A stretch of DNA of 64,000 bases. It comes from Bryobacterales bacterium. Its GTDB lineage: Bacteria > Acidobacteriota > Terriglobia > Bryobacterales > Bryobacteraceae. The position numbers and the translations under genes were made by a program. Of this stretch, positions 14,535 to 62,666 are shown piece after piece. The stretch covers positions 3,225,500 to 3,289,499 of the forward strand of contig CAVQTR010000003.1 in assembly GCA_963716685.1 (NCBI GenBank), given 5' to 3'. A model generated the notes under the pieces. It was not told the DNA's origin and made no database searches. It saw only the letters and a list, made by a program, of their open reading frames with translations. Numbering within the stretch: position 1 is the stretch's first letter; each line of letters starts with the position of its first letter.

Positions 14535-17500
14535 ATGAAGGTTTTTCCGATCTTATTTTTACTTACCACCGGCTTTCTGACCGGAGTTTCTCAAGCGGCA
14601 AGCGCAAGCCTTGACCGCGCGCTGGAATACGAAAGACAAGGCAATCCTGCTGCCGCGCGCAGCGTCCTGGTCAAAGGCCGTCCAGTCTTCGCCCCACGAT
14701 GCCCAAAGCCTAATCGATTACGCCCAGTTTCTGGACCGGTACGGCGACGCCAATGCCCGCGCCGTTTACCGGCAGGCTGCCGCCGAGTCCAAAAACCTTC
14801 CCGTTCTGAAGCGTATCGTGCTGCTGGACCTGTCGCCGGAGATCGGGCATCCGCCGCGAAAGACCTGGCCGCTTATCGAAGCGGCAGGCGGCACCGATTG
14901 GAAGCTCCGCGAAGTTCAGCTCGGCCGACACCGTGGCGGAAAAACGGCAGTACATCAAGATTCCCGGCCCGCTGCGTTCCTTCGGGCGCATGGCCGCGAT
15001 TTCGCCCGAAAGCGATCCGAACGAAGTGCTGGTCTCGCTGGCCCGCAACGTGGTCACCAACGGCTATCAGGCGTCGCACAGCAACGACGCTCTGGAACAA
15101 ACCGAATATCTGAAGCTGGTCAATCGCTATCTTTCGCAGGCGCGTGAACTGGAAAAGCTGGCCGGCGCCGATCACATGATCCACATCGCCAACTGCGATT
15201 CCACCGAGACCGGCGATCTGCTGCGGGTGCTCGGCTTCCGCATGCGCGGCGGCTGCGGCAGCGAAGTGGTGCTCGAAACCGTCAATGCCACCCGCGCCTT
15301 CCTGAGCACCGATTCCGGCTTTCCCATGGCGGAACTGGAACAGGCCCTGCGCACCAACAAGCCCTTTCGTCTACGATTATTCACCCAGCCGACGTCCCGG
15401 TTCTTTACGGCCCCGATTACTGGATCACCGCAGAAGGAAAAGAGCGACGGCGAATTCATCGACGCGTTCCTTGGCGATCCCGTCGCTCTGCCGTTTTTAT
15501 CTCGGCATGGCCAAGCTCGACCGCGCAGACTGCCGACGCGCTGAAGGAAGGACATTCCCGCTCCGCGGCTGCGCGCGTATGCTCACGTGCTCGATTTCTT
15601 CGGCGGCATGTTCGAGATCCGCGACGGCAAAGCGGTTGTTCCCGGCGGTCAGCGTTCCGCCGCGGCGTGGGCCGAACTGGCTGGGCGTCGAGTCCCGATA
15701 AGGGCGCTGCGTTCTTTGAAAAGCTGATGGCCAAAGACGATGGCTGGCTGGCCAGCCAGTTCGACGCGCTTTGCCCGCATTCACGGTCCCGTCCAGGAAT
15801 ACCTGACCGACCCGGCCCGCATGAAGCGGTTTTACTCCGCGATCCGCGGCAAAGTCACCAGCCCGGTCCGGCGCGCCCGGTATTCCGCGCCAATGCGGAT
15901 ATGATGCTGCTCACCACGCGGCTGCGCATGGACCCCAACGGTCAGGCCCACATCCCCGGCAGCATTGAGATCTGGAAGAATCTCTTCATCAACCATCCGC
16001 ACGGGAAGTACGACGCCAAGCTGACGCACGCGGCGCCCGGCTGGAAGGATTCCGATGACGTTCTCGAAGCGCTGTTCGGGCTGTCCCGCAAGTCCGTGGA
16101 AAACGAGCCGCTTAAGATTTTCATGGCGCTCAGCGATCTGGACCGCAACCGCGCGCAGCCGCTGAAGGCCGCCACAGTCGACCGGCTGGCCCGATCTTTC
16201 AAGGAATACGGAGCGCAGTACGCGATCTTCAACGACGCGCCCACGTCTGAAAGATCCCACCATCATCGCCTTTCTGGATACAGCCGCGAGGCATCGATAA
16301 GATCCGCGACACCGCGCTGCGTCAGAATGCAGCCGGAACCATGCAGGCGCTCATCGGCATGTGGCAGATCTTCTGCCGCCAGGGCCTGGTGGCGCAAGGC
16401 AGAGAAGACCAGACACTTGCCGGTATCCTGCAGCACTTCGACCAAGTGCGATAACGAAGCCGCATCTGTTCGATGGCGGCCGCGCCGGCGTGAAAGTGCT
16501 GCTGGCGGCCACGGGCCCGGTGCCCGCGGAAGGCGAAACCGCAGGAGCGCATGCTCGGGCTGCTGGCCGGCGTCAACAATCCTGTCCGACACCGACGTTC
16601 GCGACCAGCTGGTGACTGAGATGCAGCGCGTGCTCGAAGCGCAGCGCATACTCTCTCTCGACATCATCCTGCAGCTGGCCGACAATCTGGAAGGCGTTTC
16701 GCAAAGGTCAGAAGCTCAACGCTGCTCTGGCCGCGAAACTGGCCGCGCGCGTATCGGAAATTCAGCTCCCGCGCAACTCGCTTACCGGCGCGGAGAAGAA
16801 CGCGCTGGCGTTCGGCTACTGGACTGAGACGCCACATCGACGATGGAGCGCAAGACTCAACATGCGCGCGCTCATCGATAAGGCGCAGAAGGATCCGGAA
16901 AAGCTGAAGGAAATCCGCGGCCTGCTGGCGCCGTTCCTGCGCGACACGCTGGTGGCTTACAACTACGTCCACTATGCCCCGCCGGGCGCGCAGATTCTGT
17001 ATACCAATCCGCTGTTCGTCCGCGGCCACGATTTCATCGGAATGCAGGGCTCGAACCACACCTGGAAGGCCACCGAAATGTTCGGCACCGGCTGGCCTTC
17101 GAATGGCGGCGGCCGCCTGGTGGGCTCGCTGTCGGACCTGCCTTACGCGCTGGCCGAAGCCGAACAGAACTTCCTGATTCCCACGCAGACGCAGGCGCTG
17201 ATCTGGGGCGATCTGGTTCCGCAGATGATTCTGAGCGCCAAGATCCCGCGCTGGTGGAACGTGACCCCGGCGCAGATGCACTGGGTCGGACTGCACATGC
17301 GCTACGGCCAGTCGCTGCTGGCTGAGGCCGCTGCTCGATCCGAAGCTCCGGCCATGCCGTGCTGGATGCGCTCGAACTTGCAGGCGGCTCCGGCGCGCCG
17401 CGTCAGCGTCGAGCGATTCCCTGGCGGCCGGTGATGTCCGGCAGGCCATCGACAAGCTGACTCCCTCCGAACTCTACGGCATGGCGTGCGAGATGTCGTC

Positions 17501-55486: not shown

Positions 55487-55750
55487 TTATTTGCCGGGCT
55501 GGAGGAACTTCTTCGTCGCTTCGGACGGCGTCAGGATTTCGCCATCGATCAGCATGCGTCCGGTATAGCCGCCTCCCGCTTCAAACTCCCAGGCCACGTC
55601 GTGGCCTTCGCGGGCGAGCTTTGCCCATTTGGTGCGCTTGGCCGAATTCTGTTCCAGCCAGAAATTGCCGTCCGCTGTGGCTAAAGAGCGGAGTCTGGCG
55701 TGGCCGGTGCGGTTGGTCCACGTTTTCATGTCGTGGAGGTTGGGTGGCAC
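55487..55750 (-). CDS. small hypothetical protein
   Basis: 87-aa ORF (..MKTWTNRTGHARLRSLATADGNFWLEQNSAKRTKWAKLAREGHDVAWEFEAGGGYTGRMLIDGEIL..) directly upstream of arsM on the same strand. No recognised domain. Confidence 0.35.
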   Translation of the reverse strand: MPPNLHDMKTWTNRTGHARLRSLATADGNFWLEQNSAKRTKWAKLAREGHDVAWEFEAGGGYTGRMLIDGEILTPSEATKKFLQPGK

Positions 55751-56592
55751 TACTGACAGAGTAACGGCTGGGTGGGGCAGCAGCCCGCAGGCTTCGTGGC
55801 GCGAATGAAGGCGCTGAAGAACCTGCCTTCGACAGCCGGAGCCATGGCGTCGACGTCAACGCCCTGCCCGCTAAGAAAGGTTCTTGCATCTTCGATGCTG
55901 TAAACCCGGGTCGGTTCGATTTCGACAGCATCAAAACCCGCTCCGGCCAGTTTGGCGACATACTCATCCTGGCCGAGCGCCCCGGCAATGCAGCCGACCC
56001 ACAGCAGCATGTTCCTGCGCACTTCGGCAGGGACTTCGCCGCGTGTGACAACATCCGACACGGCGAAACGCCCACCCGGTTTCAGGACGCGGAACGCCTC
56101 ACGGAGCACGCGATCTTTATCGGCGGACAGGTTAATCACGCAATTGCTGATGACCACATCGACCGAGTTGTCCGGCAGCGGGATCTGCTCGATCTCCCCT
56201 TTCAGGAATTCGACATTCTCCACCCCGGCTTTGCGCTGGTTCTCGCGGGCAAGGGCCAGCATTTCATCGGTCATATCGAGGCCCCAGGCTTTGCCAGCCG
56301 GGCCGACACGGCGGGCTGACAGCAACACGTCGATGCCGCCGCCGGAGCCGAGATCGAGCACGGTTTCGCCAGCTTTCAATTCGGCGAGGGCCGTGGGGTT
56401 GCCACAGCCGAGTGACGCCAGCACCGCTGCTTCCGGGACCGTGCCGGTTTGCGTGGCATCGTACAGGTTTGCGGTGATCGGGTCACAGCAGTTATCGAGA
56501 GCGGCCCCCGCGCCACAGCAGGAGCTGCCGCCCGTGTTGACACGCAGCGCCGCCTGACCGTATTTCTCTTTGACGATGTCTTTGAGTTCCAT
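55750..56592 (-). CDS. arsM: arsenite S-adenosylmethionine methyltransferase
   Basis: Start at the internal ATG at 56592 (MELKDIVKEKYGQAALRV...). Conserved Cys pairs (SSCCG...CC), SAM motif VLDLGSGGGID, ..VISNCVINL... 280 aa. Confidence 0.8.
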   Translation of the reverse strand: MELKDIVKEKYGQAALRVNTGGSSCCGAGAALDNCCDPITANLYDATQTGTVPEAAVLASLGCGNPTALAELKAGETVLDLGSGGGIDVLLSARRVGPAGKAWGLDMTDEMLALARENQRKAGVENVEFLKGEIEQIPLPDNSVDVVISNCVINLSADKDRVLREAFRVLKPGGRFAVSDVVTRGEVPAEVRRNMLLWVGCIAGALGQDEYVAKLAGAGFDAVEIEPTRVYSIEDARTFLSGQGVDVDAMAPAVEGRFFSAFIRATKPAGCCPTQPLLCQ

Positions 56593-56600
56593 CTCTTTAT

Positions 56601-56948
56601 TTACTGACACAGGCGAAAAATCGCTTTTGGCTGAATCGCTTTGTTTCGGGTGCAGCACTCGGCATAGAGGAAGCCCAAAAGCACCTGCAAGGCTTCGGCA
56701 TTCGCCGAGTACCAAAGATACGTTCCTTCGCGGCGCACTTTCACGAGGTCTTCGTTTTTCAACTTGTCCAGGTGATGCGAGAGCGTCGAGCCAGGGATAC
56801 TGAGTTCCGTCCCGATTTCGTTGACGACCATGCCCTCGGGATGCGCTGAGAGCAGCACCCGCATGATACGCAGGCGCGGGCCGGTTCCCATGGCGGAGAA
56901 CATATCCGCAAAACGGATGATTTCGTCTTCGGTTGGTTTCGCAGGCAC
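56601..56948 (-). CDS. arsR: ArsR family metalloregulator
   Basis: HTH region (RLRIMRVLLSAHPEGMVVNEIGTELSIPGSTLSHHLDKLKNEDLV) and a C-terminal CC pair. It lies 8 nt upstream of arsM. Confidence 0.8.
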   Translation of the reverse strand: MPAKPTEDEIIRFADMFSAMGTGPRLRIMRVLLSAHPEGMVVNEIGTELSIPGSTLSHHLDKLKNEDLVKVRREGTYLWYSANAEALQVLLGFLYAECCTRNKAIQPKAIFRLCQ

Positions 56949-58011: not shown

Positions 58012-58574
58012 GGGGGATAGTGAACGCTGTGAGGTTGATCGCGGGTTTGAGCGCCGCATAGCAAGTTTCCGGTAACGCCGTTTTGCGTTCTCAATTCCGA
58101 TCACGGCTAGCGACCATCCGGCCACAAAAGTGTTCCGCTCGCGTGCAGTGCCGCCCAGTTCGAATCTATGACGGGGAGCCATCCGGAGTGGATTACGCGT
58201 TCTTCGGAGCCTCAAACTCAGAAGGCCGATTCTCGACGTTCCTGCAAAGTCCCGTTACCGGAAACTGACCCACCACACGTTATTCCGGCCGGTGCAAAAC
58301 CCTGTGTAGTCGCGAAGTATAGATCTACCCTTCGCCCTGATCGGGGCACAGCCTGGTCCTTCCGCTATGGATTTGTACCAGAGGCGCTCCGCCGACTCGG
58401 GCAATCAACAGTGCCGATTGCGTCGCGCAGAGATAAAGCATCTCACGAAACTTCGGAGTGAAGTCCGCGAACGACACGGACGCCAGAGCTAAAGGAGAGT
58501 GCCCCGCCGGTCTGCACTAGCTGAAGGTTTCATCAAATTGATCTCTCCAGTAGTTCTTTGGGGTAGCGTTGATT

Positions 58575-59018
58575 TCAGCCGGCTGCCGCGAATATCTTCG
58601 CCAATCTCTGTTGGCCGCCACGGCCGAGAATGTCCGCAAGAGTATAGCGGTTCAGAGAGGCGATAAACGCATCAAGTGCTTCCTTCAGCATTCCTCTAAG
58701 CGCGCAGACCGGCGCGATCTTACATGTGTTGGTTTTGTGGTCGAAGCACTCCACCAAACGCATGTTGGGTTCAGCGGTTCGAACCACCTCACCCAATCGG
58801 ACCAGAGCCGGTTCACGAAGCAGTGTAATGCCTCCGGAACGTCCCGGGTGGATTTTAACGTATTCGTGTTCGGCCAGCGTCTGGACCACCCGCACCAGGT
58901 GATGCTTCGAAATCTGATACGCTTCGCTGACGTCCTGCGTTCGGACTACGCGATTTGGATGGGCGCCCAGATAGACCAGCACGCGAAGCGCGTAATCTGC
59001 ATGTAAGCTTAACTGCAT
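58575..59018 (-). CDS. Rrf2 family transcriptional regulator (NsrR/IscR-like, three-Cys cluster ligands)
   Basis: MQLSLHADYALRVLVYLG HTH. Cys at CFDHKTNTCKIAPVC, the Fe-S ligand pattern of NsrR/IscR. Confidence 0.8.
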   Translation of the reverse strand: MQLSLHADYALRVLVYLGAHPNRVVRTQDVSEAYQISKHHLVRVVQTLAEHEYVKIHPGRSGGITLLREPALVRLGEVVRTAEPNMRLVECFDHKTNTCKIAPVCALRGMLKEALDAFIASLNRYTLADILGRGGQQRLAKIFAAAG

Positions 59019-59027
59019 TGCATCATG

Positions 59028-59983
59028 TTAAACCGAGGGCACAAAAGCATCGGCATAGATATCGCGTGATGCCGCCCCGGCCAGAAAGATCCTTTTGCGG
59101 AGGAGCTTGACGATCTCAGGATCGCCATACACAAAGGCGCGCCATCCGCTGAGCTGAGGCAGCCGTTCCAGCAGCACCTTTTCGATTGAGCCGGACGCAA
59201 TCTCTCCATCGCTGTTCTTCAGAACGCATGGTGTGTACTCCACATTCGGATAACGGGCCGCAATATCCCGAAGTTCTTCCCGCAGGTACAGGCCGCCCTC
59301 ATCCACTGCCCCATGAAACAGCGAGATCGGACCCGTATGACCCTGCCTAAGTGCGTCAAGCAGGATTCCATAGAGAGGCGCAAGACCGGTACCCGTGCCA
59401 GCCAGAAGCAGCGGCTGGTCCGGGCTGCCCGGCAGGTAAAAACAATCGCCCGAGGGTCCCTGGATCTGAACTCTGTCGCCTACCCGCGCGATGTCATGAA
59501 GCCAGCCGCTCATTTTACCCCCGGCGATGCGACGCACATGGATCTGGATTTCGAACCCGCCCGGCAAATTGGCAATCGAGTAACTACGGGCCAGCGTTCC
59601 GTCCAGCAGCAGCGTTATATATTGACCCGCCCGGAAATCGACCCTGGCGTCGCATCGGAGCCATACTGCGAGCACGCCTGCGCTCAACTGCTCGAAGGCT
59701 GTAATCGTCGCGCCGAACCGTGCGTCCGTTCCAACGCGGGCAACAGTCAAGTCTGAATCCGGCGTGCACACGCACGGTAGAAAATAGCCCTGCGCCGCCC
59801 ATGAAGGCTTAAGCCCGGCCTGGGCTTTTGCGGGCACGATTCCCTCGACCGCTCGCATCATGCACGAACCGCAAGTGCCGGCCATGCATGAATGCGGCGC
59901 CTCTACACCTCCGCCAAGCAGCACATCGAGAACAGACCTTCCAGGCGCGATTGAGTAAGAGCGCCCGTCAAAATCGCGGTCAT
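59028..59983 (-). CDS. 2Fe-2S ferredoxin domain fused to FAD/NAD(P) reductase (FNR-like), 5' homopolymer frameshift
   Basis: Cx4CxxC...C (CMAGTCGSC...LPCVC), then an FNR module (RSYSIAN, GTGLAP). The listed ORF starts at GTG 59924 with only 12 residues before the first Cys. The ATG at 59983 (MTAI) joins the ferredoxin N-terminus (FDGRSYSIAPGRSVLDVLLGG) if the T4 run at 59970-59973 is read as T5. Confidence 0.7.
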
Positions 59984-59991
59984 AAAATCAG

Positions 59992-60375
59992 TCAGCGGTT
60001 CAGGACGTCTGCGCGGGTGGATTTGGCAATCGCGGCAACCTGCGCGATCAGGTTCGCGGGAACGTTCAAGTCAGTGAGGCTTTGACCGAGCAGTTCCACC
60101 ACAGCGTCGAAATGTGAATCGTTCAGGCCCATCGCCACGAGACGTGCATGGGCCGCTCGCATGTCCTTGCCGGTATAGGACACAGGACCTCCAAACGCCA
60201 TCGTTAGAAAACCTTTTTGCTTCGCGATCTGGCGGTCCATATCGACATCGTCAAAGAATCTGCTGATACGGTCGTCCGCAAGTACCTTTCGATAGAAGAC
60301 GTCAACCGCGGCGTTCACTGCCGCTTCACCGCCGATTTGTTCGTAGAGAGATTGAGTGAACGCCATAATATGCAT
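59992..60375 (-). CDS. truncated haemoglobin, group I (trHbN-like 2/2 globin)
   Basis: 127 aa. SLYEQIGGEAAVNAAVDVFYRKVLADDRISRFF ... AHARL proximal-His region, typical of 2/2 Hb. It is 8 nt upstream of the reductase gene. Confidence 0.8.
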   Translation of the reverse strand: MHIMAFTQSLYEQIGGEAAVNAAVDVFYRKVLADDRISRFFDDVDMDRQIAKQKGFLTMAFGGPVSYTGKDMRAAHARLVAMGLNDSHFDAVVELLGQSLTDLNVPANLIAQVAAIAKSTRADVLNR

Positions 60376-60411
60376 TCAGAATGCATCTTTTTAGCGGAGC
60401 TGTCAAGCTCG

Positions 60412-62226
60412 TCACGCTTCCTGATTCGCCGATACCTTGCGCGCCGATCGGGAAAACGGAAACCGCAACTCAAGCACCCTTTCGCGATCGCGTTCCTCCT
60501 GGAGATTCCGAATACGCGCGCCCAGCAAATCCCCCAGAGCTACGACGCCTTCCAGCAGTCCGGTGTTCCGATCCACAACCGGCATCCGGGTCAAACCCGT
60601 TTCGGCCATGCGCATGACCACAACACGCAAGGGCTCATCCGGATGCGCGGTCACGGCCTCCCGAACCACTGCGCCCAGACTTTGACTTCCCGCATCGCCG
60701 TCGATAATTTCGCGCAGTTGCCCGCGCGTCACCACACCGATGAGTTTCTTCTTGTCGTCTACTACCGGGTATAAATGTTGTCCGTGTTTCGTCTGCCGCT
60801 GCAGCACAACAGGCCGCAGTTCCTCTACCGTCGTCTGCGCGGGGAGCACAGCAACCTTCGTTCGCATTACCTCACGAACAAACATAATCTCCAGCGGGTC
60901 GATGGCGTACTCACGCGTGAGGTGAAATCCTCGCCGTGCCACCTTCTCAGTAAGAATAGACCGTTTCAGCAGCAAGACTGTCGTTCCGTGGGCCAGCATG
61001 GCGGCGACCAGCAGGGGCAGCAGCACGTTGATGTCGTGTGTCAGTTCAAGCGCGAACAGCACTGCGGTAAATGGTGCGCGCATTGTACCGCCCAACATGG
61101 CGCCCATACTGACCAGAGGCCAGAACCCTGCCCCTTCCTGTGGCAGAAAGGCTGCTTCCATTCCGCCCAGAGCAGCGCCCATCATGAGTAATGGCGCCAG
61201 CACACCGCCCGACGTTCCCGACCCCAGCGAGATGATCCAGATTGTTGATTTCACCAGGAGTACACCTGCAATCACGGTCGCTGCGACATTTCCCTGCAAT
61301 AACTCTCGAATCGTGTCGTATCCGACTCCGAGCGCCTGGGGGAAAATCATACCGCCCAGTCCAACGAACAACGCACCGATTGACGGCCACCACATCCAGT
61401 GGATGGGCAATTTCATGAACCCATCCTCGGCCGCATAGACGCCCCATGTCAGTAATGCTGAGAGTGCACCGGCCAGCAGGCCCGCAATCGCGCAGCCCAG
61501 GAGTCCCTCGGGTCCAATGAAGATCGCATGGTGGGGTACCGGGAACAAAGGCCCGAGGCCGAGAATGTAACGCCGGCCCGCGCCTGCAGCCGCGCTCGCC
61601 AGAGCCACCGGGATGGCGCTCCGCGGCTTCCACTCGAACAACAGCAGTTCAACCGCGAGCATAACTGCGGCGACAGGTGTCGCGAAGGTTGCCGACATTC
61701 CCGCAGCCGCTCCCGCTACGAGTAGAGTTTTTCGTTCCGATGCCGTCAGATGGAAGAACTGCGCGACGATCGAGCCAATCGCGCCGCCGGTCATGATGAT
61801 CGGACCTTCCGCACCGAACGGTCCGCCCGAGCCGATCGATATCGCCGCTGACAGTGGTTTCAGGATCGCCAGCCGTGGCTGCACCCTGCTTCCGTGAATC
61901 AGGATTGATTCCAGTGCCTCGGGAATCCCGTGGCCGCGAATCCGCTCAGAACCGTACCGCGCCATAAACCCGATGGCAAGTGCTCCGCCCACCGGCACAA
62001 GAACCGCCCACCAGCCCAAATGGTTTCCCGCCGGAGAGTTGAGCACAGTGCTGATCGTTCCGAAGTAGAAGAGGTTCGTGAAGAACGCAATCAGCCGCAA
62101 GAGTGCCCATGCGACGCAGGTAGCGATCAGGCCGATCACGATTGCCAGCATCGAAATCGGGATCACGCGCGCCGTGGTCGTGAAATCCCCTAAGCCTGCA
62201 GCACGGTCTTTATAATTGTGTTTCAT
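60412..62226 (-). CDS. ClC family chloride channel/H+-Cl- exchanger with C-terminal CBS pair
   Basis: GSGIP-like (GHGIPEA), GKEGP-like (GAEGPII) and GxFxP (GGMIFP) selectivity motifs. Two CBS domains at the C-terminus. 604 aa. Confidence 0.85.
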   Translation of the reverse strand: MKHNYKDRAAGLGDFTTTARVIPISMLAIVIGLIATCVAWALLRLIAFFTNLFYFGTISTVLNSPAGNHLGWWAVLVPVGGALAIGFMARYGSERIRGHGIPEALESILIHGSRVQPRLAILKPLSAAISIGSGGPFGAEGPIIMTGGAIGSIVAQFFHLTASERKTLLVAGAAAGMSATFATPVAAVMLAVELLLFEWKPRSAIPVALASAAAGAGRRYILGLGPLFPVPHHAIFIGPEGLLGCAIAGLLAGALSALLTWGVYAAEDGFMKLPIHWMWWPSIGALFVGLGGMIFPQALGVGYDTIRELLQGNVAATVIAGVLLVKSTIWIISLGSGTSGGVLAPLLMMGAALGGMEAAFLPQEGAGFWPLVSMGAMLGGTMRAPFTAVLFALELTHDINVLLPLLVAAMLAHGTTVLLLKRSILTEKVARRGFHLTREYAIDPLEIMFVREVMRTKVAVLPAQTTVEELRPVVLQRQTKHGQHLYPVVDDKKKLIGVVTRGQLREIIDGDAGSQSLGAVVREAVTAHPDEPLRVVVMRMAETGLTRMPVVDRNTGLLEGVVALGDLLGARIRNLQEERDRERVLELRFPFSRSARKVSANQEA

Positions 62227-62666
62227 GCGCGGTGGCCTTTCCGGCTGTGTCGCAGCATGGACTGAAGTGCTCTCGCCACCTCCGGGCCAGAGCGTTCCAG
62301 TTCCTCACGGTGAGCTACAGCCAATTTGCGGAGAATTGTCTTTCCCTCCGGCGTGAGCCGAATCCACACTTCGCGTCTGTCTTCCGGACCCGGGCTGCGG
62401 GCTATGGCGCCGGCGGACTCAAGCCGATTCACCAACTCGACAGTGCTGTGGTGCTGAATAAAGAGCCTCGATGCCAGTTCGCCGATCGTAGGCTTGACTT
62501 CGGCCGGCAGCCCCTGCACCGCCAGCAATAGTTGATGCTGTTGCGGTTCGATGCCGACACTCTTTGCGGCCGCCTCGCTGAAATGAAGAAACTGACGGAT
62601 CTGCCGCCGGAACTCCGCCAGATCCCTATACTGCTCCGGAGTCAAATCAATGTTCTCATCGACCAC
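62223..62666 (-). CDS. MarR family transcriptional regulator
   Basis: Winged-helix region (QHQLLLAVQGLPAEVKPTIGELASRLFIQHHSTVELVNRLESAGAIAR). 4-nt overlap with the ClC gene. Divergent from the TIR/NB-ARC gene. Confidence 0.8.
   Translation of the reverse strand: MVDENIDLTPEQYRDLAEFRRQIRQFLHFSEAAAKSVGIEPQQHQLLLAVQGLPAEVKPTIGELASRLFIQHHSTVELVNRLESAGAIARSPGPEDRREVWIRLTPEGKTILRKLAVAHREELERSGPEVARALQSMLRHSRKGHRA

Follow-up and report, generated by a model that had tools for sequence, protein, structure and literature searches.

An acidobacterial copy of a widespread gene cassette for a truncated haemoglobin, a probable iron-sulfur flavin reductase and an NsrR-like repressor

Introduction

Nitric oxide (NO) dioxygenation by truncated haemoglobins is limited by the re-reduction of the ferric haem. 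Which protein could supply the electrons is the question raised by a locus in Bryobacterales bacterium (GenBank assembly GCA_963716685.1, contig CAVQTR010000003.1, positions 3,225,500 to 3,289,499; this whole stretch of 64,000 nucleotides is called the window below), where the genes for a truncated haemoglobin N (trHbN; glbN), a reductase and an NsrR-like regulator of the Rrf2 family lie closely spaced, in this order, on the minus strand. The locus represents, in an acidobacterium, a widespread cassette of three genes that combines a small haemoglobin, a probable Fe-S flavin reductase, and an NO-sensing repressor with its operator, and it supplies an obvious candidate partner reductase for trHbN. 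We consider it probable that glbN, the reductase gene and nsrR form a tricistronic operon with one promoter under NsrR-type control, whose products would detoxify NO as a two-protein counterpart of the flavohaemoglobin Hmp. An original prediction, made from the letters and their open reading frames (ORFs), had called three genes on one strand here and read them as a functional equivalent of Hmp under a nitrosative-stress repressor. The gene positions were confirmed, and the equivalence is supported at the sequence level by synteny, the operator, the cluster ligands and homology to the reductase GcoB. The novelty that it implied is lower, as the arrangement had already been predicted for Legionella. 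The parts of the module are as follows.

59992..60366, minus strand: glbN, group-1 (N-type) truncated haemoglobin of 124 amino acids (aa); PF01152, E=1e-18
59028..59983, minus strand: reductase gene (2Fe-2S ferredoxin, FAD-binding and NAD-binding domains) with a frameshift at codon 5; PF00111, PF00970, PF00175
58575..59018, minus strand: nsrR-like gene for an Rrf2 repressor of 147 aa, beginning 9 nucleotides (nt) past the reductase stop; PF02082, E=2.4e-32
60367..60389, minus strand: NsrR-type operator, an 11-1-11 inverted repeat; consensus match and conservation in relatives
60401..60406, minus strand: -35-like hexamer TTGACA, 5 nt past the stop of the upstream CLC gene; read directly
60378..60383, minus strand: putative -10 element CATTCT, inside the operator and 17 nt from the -35 hexamer; inferred from the register in relatives
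59969..59974, minus strand: 4-nt deletion at ATTTTG in comparison with every intact relative; DNA alignments

Conservation of the cassette

A single genome from each species was scanned with aligned reductase homologues, which gave 553 confirmed relatives, and the 80 best loci were retained. At least five phyla are represented among these loci (Acidobacteriota, Myxococcota, Beta-, Gamma- and Zetaproteobacteria, Planctomycetota and Hydrogenedentota), and globin and Rrf2 genes were sought in them by tblastn with the window proteins. The globin gene lies directly upstream of the reductase gene in 77 of the 80 loci, two of the three misses being contig ends, and 2-33 nt separate the two genes in 72 of these 77; intergenic gaps in the cassette are mostly below 35 nt. 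An Rrf2 gene accompanies the pair in 69 loci, on the reductase strand and nearly always directly downstream in 64 of them and on the opposite strand in the other 5. Clustering of the ORFs that flank the 80 loci revealed no oxygenase or other family that recurs beyond the three cassette genes.

The globin and its probable chemistry

All profile searches proposed with the original prediction (PF01152, PF00111, PF00175/PF00970 and PF02082) gave matches. For the globin, PF01152 scored 68 bits (cut-off 21), and the top 20 matches in the PDB are all group-1 truncated haemoglobins, with group-2-type entries only at E~1e-9 or weaker, in agreement with the predicted group-I 2/2 haemoglobin. The best of them are Synechocystis and Synechococcus GlbN (~1e-33), followed by Tetrahymena trHbN, Chlamydomonas THB1 and Mycobacterium tuberculosis HbN. 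Residues Y25(B10), F38(CD1), Q46(E7), K49(E10), Q50(E11) and H73(F8) are invariant across 78 linked globins, as is the Gly-Gly hinge G59-G60, and the hinge G12-G13 is kept in 74-75 of the 78. An alternative in-frame ATG at 60375, which lies inside the operator, would add three residues to give 127 aa; the source annotation (P0122) has the 124-aa form.

The invariant TyrB10/GlnE7/GlnE11 triad, and the closest characterised homologues (Tetrahymena trHbN, THB1 and M. tuberculosis HbN), which are NO dioxygenases in the literature, point to NO dioxygenation, a turnover that needs exactly an NADH-driven one-electron donor. These points speak against the alternative that the pair is NO-induced and serves other chemistry, such as globin-catalysed reduction of NO or nitrite under anaerobic conditions, scavenging of peroxynitrite or peroxide, or O2 supply to an oxidase. 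That alternative draws on LysE10, which is invariant and may make the haem six-coordinate, on the Acinetobacter baumannii haemoglobin, which has both NO dioxygenase and NO reductase activities, and on genes linked to the pair elsewhere, namely a nasC-like assimilatory nitrate reductase in close relatives and cytochrome bd in 11 Myxococcota loci. We consider it unlikely, and NO dioxygenation remains our preferred assignment.

Group-1 globin domains related to the window globin also occur in tandem. Proteins P0241-P0284 (~390-425 aa) form a sizeable family with three such domains, each 60-75% identical to the window globin; Pfam finds three Bac_globin stretches in P0241, and P0121 and P0149 (~200-211 aa) are two-domain versions.

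The reductase family

The reductase carries PF00111 (Fer2), PF00970 (FAD_binding_6) and PF00175 (NAD_binding_1) in this order. The pattern C-x4-C-x2-C...C, RxYS and GTGxAP of BenC/GcoB-type reductases is present, and the motifs C33, C38, C41, C71/C73, R133-x-Y135-S136 and G196-TGTGLAP are invariant. Once the reading frame is restored, the best solved homologue is GcoB (5ogx, E=1.3e-39), which aligns over the full length; BenC (1krh) aligns over most of it, and the FAD/NAD half matches Hmp (1gvh, E=2e-18). Like BenC and GcoB, the protein has its Fer2 domain at the N-terminus, whereas phthalate-dioxygenase reductase has it at the C-terminus. The risk recognised in the original prediction, that this might be a generic phthalate-dioxygenase-type reductase whose relatives lack any conserved linkage to the globin, thus does not apply, given the domain order and the globin synteny described above. 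Membership in a named equivalog (PRK05713, BenC, MmoC or Hcr) was not found, the best NCBIfam match being NF004317 at 169.5 bits (cut-off 338) and the others also staying below their cut-offs. The protein belongs to a distinct subfamily that is defined by its linkage to the globin.

Operator, promoter and regulator

A 23-bp palindrome (AAGATGCATTCTGAATGCATATT, 60389..60367) lies between the CLC stop and the globin start, where the original prediction had proposed, from 60375 upstream, that an NsrR-like operator be sought. It is an 11-1-11 inverted repeat, AAGATGCATTC-T-GAATGCATATT, which begins eleven nucleotides past TTGACA (60406..60401) and ends one base before the globin ATG at 60366. No match appeared in 100 shuffles. 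At 60369-60387 it differs by one mismatch from the published NsrR consensus gATGyAT-N5-ATrCATc, and it is the sole good match in the 64 kb. A similar, NsrR-like sequence, AAGATGTATTTTAAATACATCT, has been reported upstream of the A. baumannii haemoglobin gene, which is repressed by NsrR.

The operator is conserved with the cassette. All 37 sites with at most three mismatches in 864 kb of related loci fall within 130 nt upstream of a globin gene, and sites with at most five mismatches are found in 58 of 75 upstream regions as compared to 0 of 3750 shuffled controls. At the latter threshold, loci that have an Rrf2 gene carry a site in 56 of 66 cases and loci that lack one in 2 of 9 (Fisher p=2.7e-4, uncorrected for phylogeny). 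Among the 41 sites that have a TTGACA-like hexamer, it stands 11-12 nt upstream of the 23-mer in 35, and in 24 of 58 cases the next ATG starts 0-1 nt past the site. We propose a promoter here because the register from the -35 hexamer to the operator is fixed in relatives; the putative -10 element would lie within the operator, the transcript would be leaderless or nearly so, and the repressor would act by blocking the promoter. In six Archangium and Vitiosangium loci (L012, L015, L018, L022, L027 and L033), two tandem NsrR-type palindromes precede the globin gene, followed by a leader of ~50-75 nt with a Shine-Dalgarno-like GGAG, while Acidobacteriota have a single site abutting the ATG.

The Rrf2 protein matches PF02082 at 112 bits (cut-off 30), and its residues 1-132 align with Streptomyces coelicolor NsrR (ScNsrR). 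The three-Cys pattern noticed in the original prediction is borne out on alignment as Cys91, Cys99 and Cys105, together with D8, so that the ligands are not lost, which the prediction had considered fatal to its model. These four residues align with the [4Fe-4S] ligands D8, C93, C99 and C105 of ScNsrR, and R12 aligns with ScNsrR Arg12, the salt-bridge partner of Asp8. D8, R12, C91, C99 and C105 are kept in 69 of 70 linked Rrf2 homologues. We call the protein NsrR-like, not a proven equivalog, on the basis of ligands, operator and context.

These data also bear on a reading in which the adjacency of the three genes is meaningless, the reductase serving an aromatic or alkane oxygenase or sugar deoxygenation and the Rrf2 protein being an iron or Fe-S regulator of RirA/IscR type. 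Source annotations do name such functions, for example 'CDP-6-deoxyglucose reductase E3', and the NCBIfam matches to BenC, MmoC and RirA are about as strong as the best ones, all below their cut-offs. The globin synteny across phyla contradicts such a reading, which also has to contend with the lack of a recurrent oxygenase or other neighbour across loci and with an operator that has the NsrR consensus and co-occurs with the Rrf2 gene. The IRO box of RirA is TGA-N9-TCA. We regard this explanation as highly improbable.

Proposed mechanism

The sequence data show the order of the genes, their domains, the conserved ligands and operator, and the joint occurrence of operator and regulator gene. 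The mechanism that we infer beyond this, which takes in NO responsiveness, a leaderless transcript, NO dioxygenation and the route of the electrons, would run as follows. When NO is absent, a [4Fe-4S] Rrf2 dimer would bind the 23-bp palindrome, which would span the -10 region, the likely transcription start and the start codon, and RNA polymerase would be blocked. NO would nitrosylate the cluster and release the repressor from DNA, giving an mRNA with almost no leader. With nsrR at the end of the operon, the repressor would control its own synthesis. The oxy-ferrous globin, with TyrB10, GlnE7 and GlnE11 holding the ligand, would turn NO into nitrate and become ferric, and the reductase would re-reduce the haem with electrons that travel from NAD(P)H via FAD and then the reductase's own 2Fe-2S cluster. 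Together, globin and reductase would do the job of the single-chain Hmp.

Several observations weigh against this mechanism. The Rrf2 protein does not reach the NsrR equivalog threshold (NF008240, its best NCBIfam match, 105 bits versus a cut-off of 182), the RirA model NF008886 is nearly equal at 103 bits, and the Cys spacing is C-x7-C-x5-C compared with C-x5-C-x5-C in ScNsrR. A consensus promoter scan found neither a sigma-70 promoter nor a terminator on the minus strand, and CATTCT matches TATAAT at three of six positions. Nine loci have no Rrf2 gene nearby, and most of these also have no operator, which suggests that regulation varies between lineages. No globin-reductase fusion was found among the top 120 matches of a concatenated query, in which ~400-aa proteins with three tandem globins appeared instead. 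The reductase ORF of the window is broken by a frameshift, and the putative NO dioxygenase activity and globin-reductase partnership are read from gene context.

For the cassette at large, we lean slightly towards the view that LysE10-type group-1 truncated haemoglobins have a dedicated physiological reductase in the globin-linked 2Fe-2S/FAD/NAD protein. The pair would then be a distinct class of two-component NO dioxygenase, carried in a conserved cassette with a promoter, an operator and a leaderless start, and would replace Hmp in numerous bacteria of soil and freshwater, among them Acidobacteriota, Myxococcota, some Proteobacteria, Planctomycetota and Hydrogenedentota. In that case it would provide a ready experimental system for the in vivo re-reduction of truncated haemoglobin N.

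The frameshift in the reductase gene

In the original prediction the reductase follows the globin after 8 nt. The ATG at 59983 is there and the Fer2 and FNR domains are present, but this ATG is out of frame with the body of the reductase and the ORF is not intact, the frame breaking after codon 4, before the ferredoxin domain has been read through. From the ATG, MTAILTGALTQSRLEGLFSMCCLAEV and then a stop are encoded, and the frame closes after 26 codons. The body lies in a different frame, in which a stop followed by FYDRDFDGRSYSIAPGRSVLDV stands ahead of the first possible start, GTG 59924; the largest intact reductase ORF is thus GTG 59924..59028 (298 aa). Because the body frame has no start before this GTG, the Fer2 match begins only at profile position 27 of 77. 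Homologues begin M-[TPA]-A-I-x-[YF]-[ED]-G-R-S-Y, and the window splits the corresponding MTAI and FDGRSYSIAPGRSVLDVLL between two frames. In DNA alignment, the window has a 4-nt gap (GCGATTT----TGACGGG) relative to GCGATTTACTATGACGGG in L087, a locus ~91% identical to it; the 4 nt are also present in L083, L085, L086 and L081, and it is their absence from the window that puts ATG 59983 out of frame with the body. Owing to the same break, the source annotation of the reductase (P0001) is a 277-aa product without the Fer2 domain. The frame-restored reductase aligns end to end with homologues of 320-329 aa.

The cassette may be impaired in this genome, or the assembly may be wrong at this point. 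In the former case the 4-nt deletion would be real and the cassette decaying, its reductase a pseudogene or a crippled protein without the first ferredoxin strands, with the globin and NsrR kept and the neighbouring nitrate-transporter gene already lost. The frameshift is confined to the window, with none among the relatives checked, and a narK-like relic lies downstream of nsrR. A loss of 4 nt is not a simple one-base homopolymer error, and the many long intact ORFs elsewhere in the window (up to 1146 aa) indicate that the assembly is not generally indel-ridden. The remaining 298 reductase codons, on the other hand, contain no stop, and the window has lost none of the residues that are near-invariant in 112 reductase homologues, so that any inactivation would be very recent. 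The assembly of L087, the closest relative, has several obvious indels in the same 600 nt, which marks this class of data as error-prone. We give decay a chance somewhat short of even. If ATTTACTATGAC (or ATTTCTTTTGAG) truly stands at window 59960-59985, the frameshift is an assembly error; if ATTTTGAC is the true sequence, the reductase is inactivated in this strain.

The indels of L087 (4440-5010) hit the globin N-terminus, the CLC gene and the reductase Cys motif, which points to a noisy and probably long-read assembly. In the NAD-binding domain, at window 59175-59177 (residue 286 once the frame is restored), the window has Tyr (FVYGDP) where Cys (YVCGDP) is found in at least 90% of 24 aligned homologues; invariance here is not strict, with Ala in one homologue.

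Short database entries for this reductase (P0006, P0110 and P0118; 278-279 aa, no Fer2) had suggested a recurrent truncation or a programmed frameshift. We rejected this idea because the full 320-aa ORF is intact in L081 (458-1420), where the gene caller picked an internal Met; the short P0110 is a gene-calling artefact over an intact ORF. Gene callers repeatedly begin the reductase at an internal 'MMRA' Met, and the 2Fe-2S domain is then absent from the database proteins. The lesson for annotation is that this reductase often starts too late in databases and loses its Fe-S domain. The database names 'CDP-6-deoxyglucose reductase E3' and 'CDP-4-dehydro-6-deoxyglucose reductase' are probably misleading as well.

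Neighbouring genes

Three further features border the module in the window.

58400..58510, minus strand: relic of a narK-family nitrate/nitrite transporter gene, N-terminus, not an intact ORF; tblastn
62226..60412, minus strand: CLC/CBS channel gene, directly upstream of the module
62666..62223, minus strand: MarR gene, upstream of the module

The narK relic is 55% identical over 47 residues (E=1.7e-6, tblastn) to a major facilitator superfamily (MFS) protein of L083. Intact narK-like and nasC-like genes directly follow the globin-reductase pair in L083 and L084, and the contig of P0006 is alike by Pfam domains; these genes are limited to a few loci and the closest relatives. Assimilatory nitrate reductase has been documented to produce NO (PMC4724949), and nitrate assimilation is a likely NO source in this clade. 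In L085 and L086, MFS ORFs are fragmented at the position of the narK relic. In L083, Fe-S and Rieske genes follow the narK-like and nasC-like genes, and beyond the nitrate genes (14693-16966) lie genes of nitrosative-stress type for a hemerythrin, a Crp/Fnr-family regulator and a ScdA/YtfE-like protein (ScdA_N and hemerythrin domains).

Other neighbours, namely ATP synthase, cytochrome bd and ADP-ribosylglycohydrolase genes, are specific to Myxococcota. Pfam identifies CydA and CydB 3-5 kb downstream of the cassette in 11 loci of this phylum (e.g., L015 10046-11377 and L027 11475-12515). Cytochrome bd oxidases are NO-tolerant, and their association with the cassette may have a functional meaning.

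The MarR and CLC genes were rejected as members of the module, since among the 80 loci they are common only to the closest relative, L087. The CLC/CBS channel (60412-62226, minus strand) has the motif GHGIPE, in which His would occupy the position of the central Ser of the selectivity filter; the counterpart in Escherichia coli ClC-ec1 is GSGIPE. Further away and unrelated to the cassette, 55750-56948 (minus strand) holds a gene for an ArsR-type helix-turn-helix regulator (56948..56601) followed by an S-adenosylmethionine-dependent methyltransferase gene (Methyltransf_31/11), which is ArsM-like by this arrangement.

Comparison with known systems

In E. coli, Bacillus and Streptomyces, Hmp is under NsrR control. 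This system shares with the window cassette a globin, an FNR-type FAD/NAD(P)H module and an ATGCAT-type palindrome, but Hmp joins a 3-on-3 globin to its reductase in one chain and lacks an Fe-S domain, whereas the cassette has a 2-on-2 globin, separate genes and a 2Fe-2S domain between flavin and haem. The locus is not a member of the flavohaemoglobins, though it would work like Hmp. For the globin itself, M. tuberculosis HbN (1idr, E=9e-19), the case studied best, belongs to the same group and has the same TyrB10 and GlnE11, and differs by a pre-A extension and LeuE7. To our knowledge, no reductase is encoded beside HbN and no cognate reductase is known for it, its physiological electron donor being debated. 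Chlamydomonas THB1, which together with nitrate reductase is another comparable system, shares LysE10 with the window globin, and in THB1 this residue acts as a ligand.

Two systems offer parallels for electron delivery by a separate protein. GcoB (PDB 5OGX), which combines 2Fe-2S, FAD and NADH domains, delivers electrons directly to the haem of a separate P450, GcoA (PMC6021390). Its domain order, with the 2Fe-2S domain N-terminal and then FAD and NADH, is that of the window reductase, but its partner is a P450 O-demethylase, not a globin, and it is without NO-responsive regulation. In Bradyrhizobium japonicum, a separate globin (Bjgb) and flavoprotein reductase (Flp) are encoded beside assimilatory nitrate reductase genes and clear the NO made by that enzyme (PMC4724949). 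Close relatives of the window locus show such a nitrate-assimilation neighbourhood, of which the window keeps only the narK relic; Bjgb is a single-domain 3-on-3 globin, and Flp lacks a 2Fe-2S domain. Bjgb-Flp is regulated by NasS-NasT, not by NsrR.

The closest precedent is Legionella pneumophila, where Rodionov et al. (2005) predicted glbN-lpg2536 to be the sole NsrR target, oxidising NO as Hmp does, with a site at -2 (GATGTATTTcAAATACATC) and a divergent nsrR (PMC1274295). Gardner's 2012 review restates this prediction as evidence for FNR-like proteins that reduce truncated globins (PMC3820574). In the library that we searched for lpg2536 and for cognate reductases of truncated globins, the 2005 prediction and reviews were the only items, and no experimental follow-up was found. 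Both loci have a gene for a cyanoglobin-type truncated haemoglobin followed by a ferredoxin-reductase gene, a single NsrR palindrome abutting the start codon (at -2 there, ending 1 nt before the ATG here), and an adjacent nsrR. They differ in that nsrR is divergent in Legionella and the third gene of the same operon here, the divergent layout recurring in 5 loci of our set, and in that the host here is a Bryobacteraceae-type acidobacterium. The Legionella case is a computational prediction, and we liken it to ours by gene order and site, no Legionella sequence being among the 80 loci.

The idea is thus twenty years old and stands in a major review, and the window locus is a further, possibly damaged example and evidence of breadth, not a discovery. 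The kind was predicted in 2005; the window adds an acidobacterial member with a downstream, probably co-transcribed nsrR and a frameshifted reductase. The candidate reductase is no peculiarity of Legionella, as it recurs in more than 550 genome loci, with active-site residues that do not vary and an operator that is conserved. The wide spread of the cassette, the invariant residues and the fixed architecture of promoter, operator and start are what our comparison adds to the precedent, and they make the idea of a cognate reductase of trHbN directly testable.

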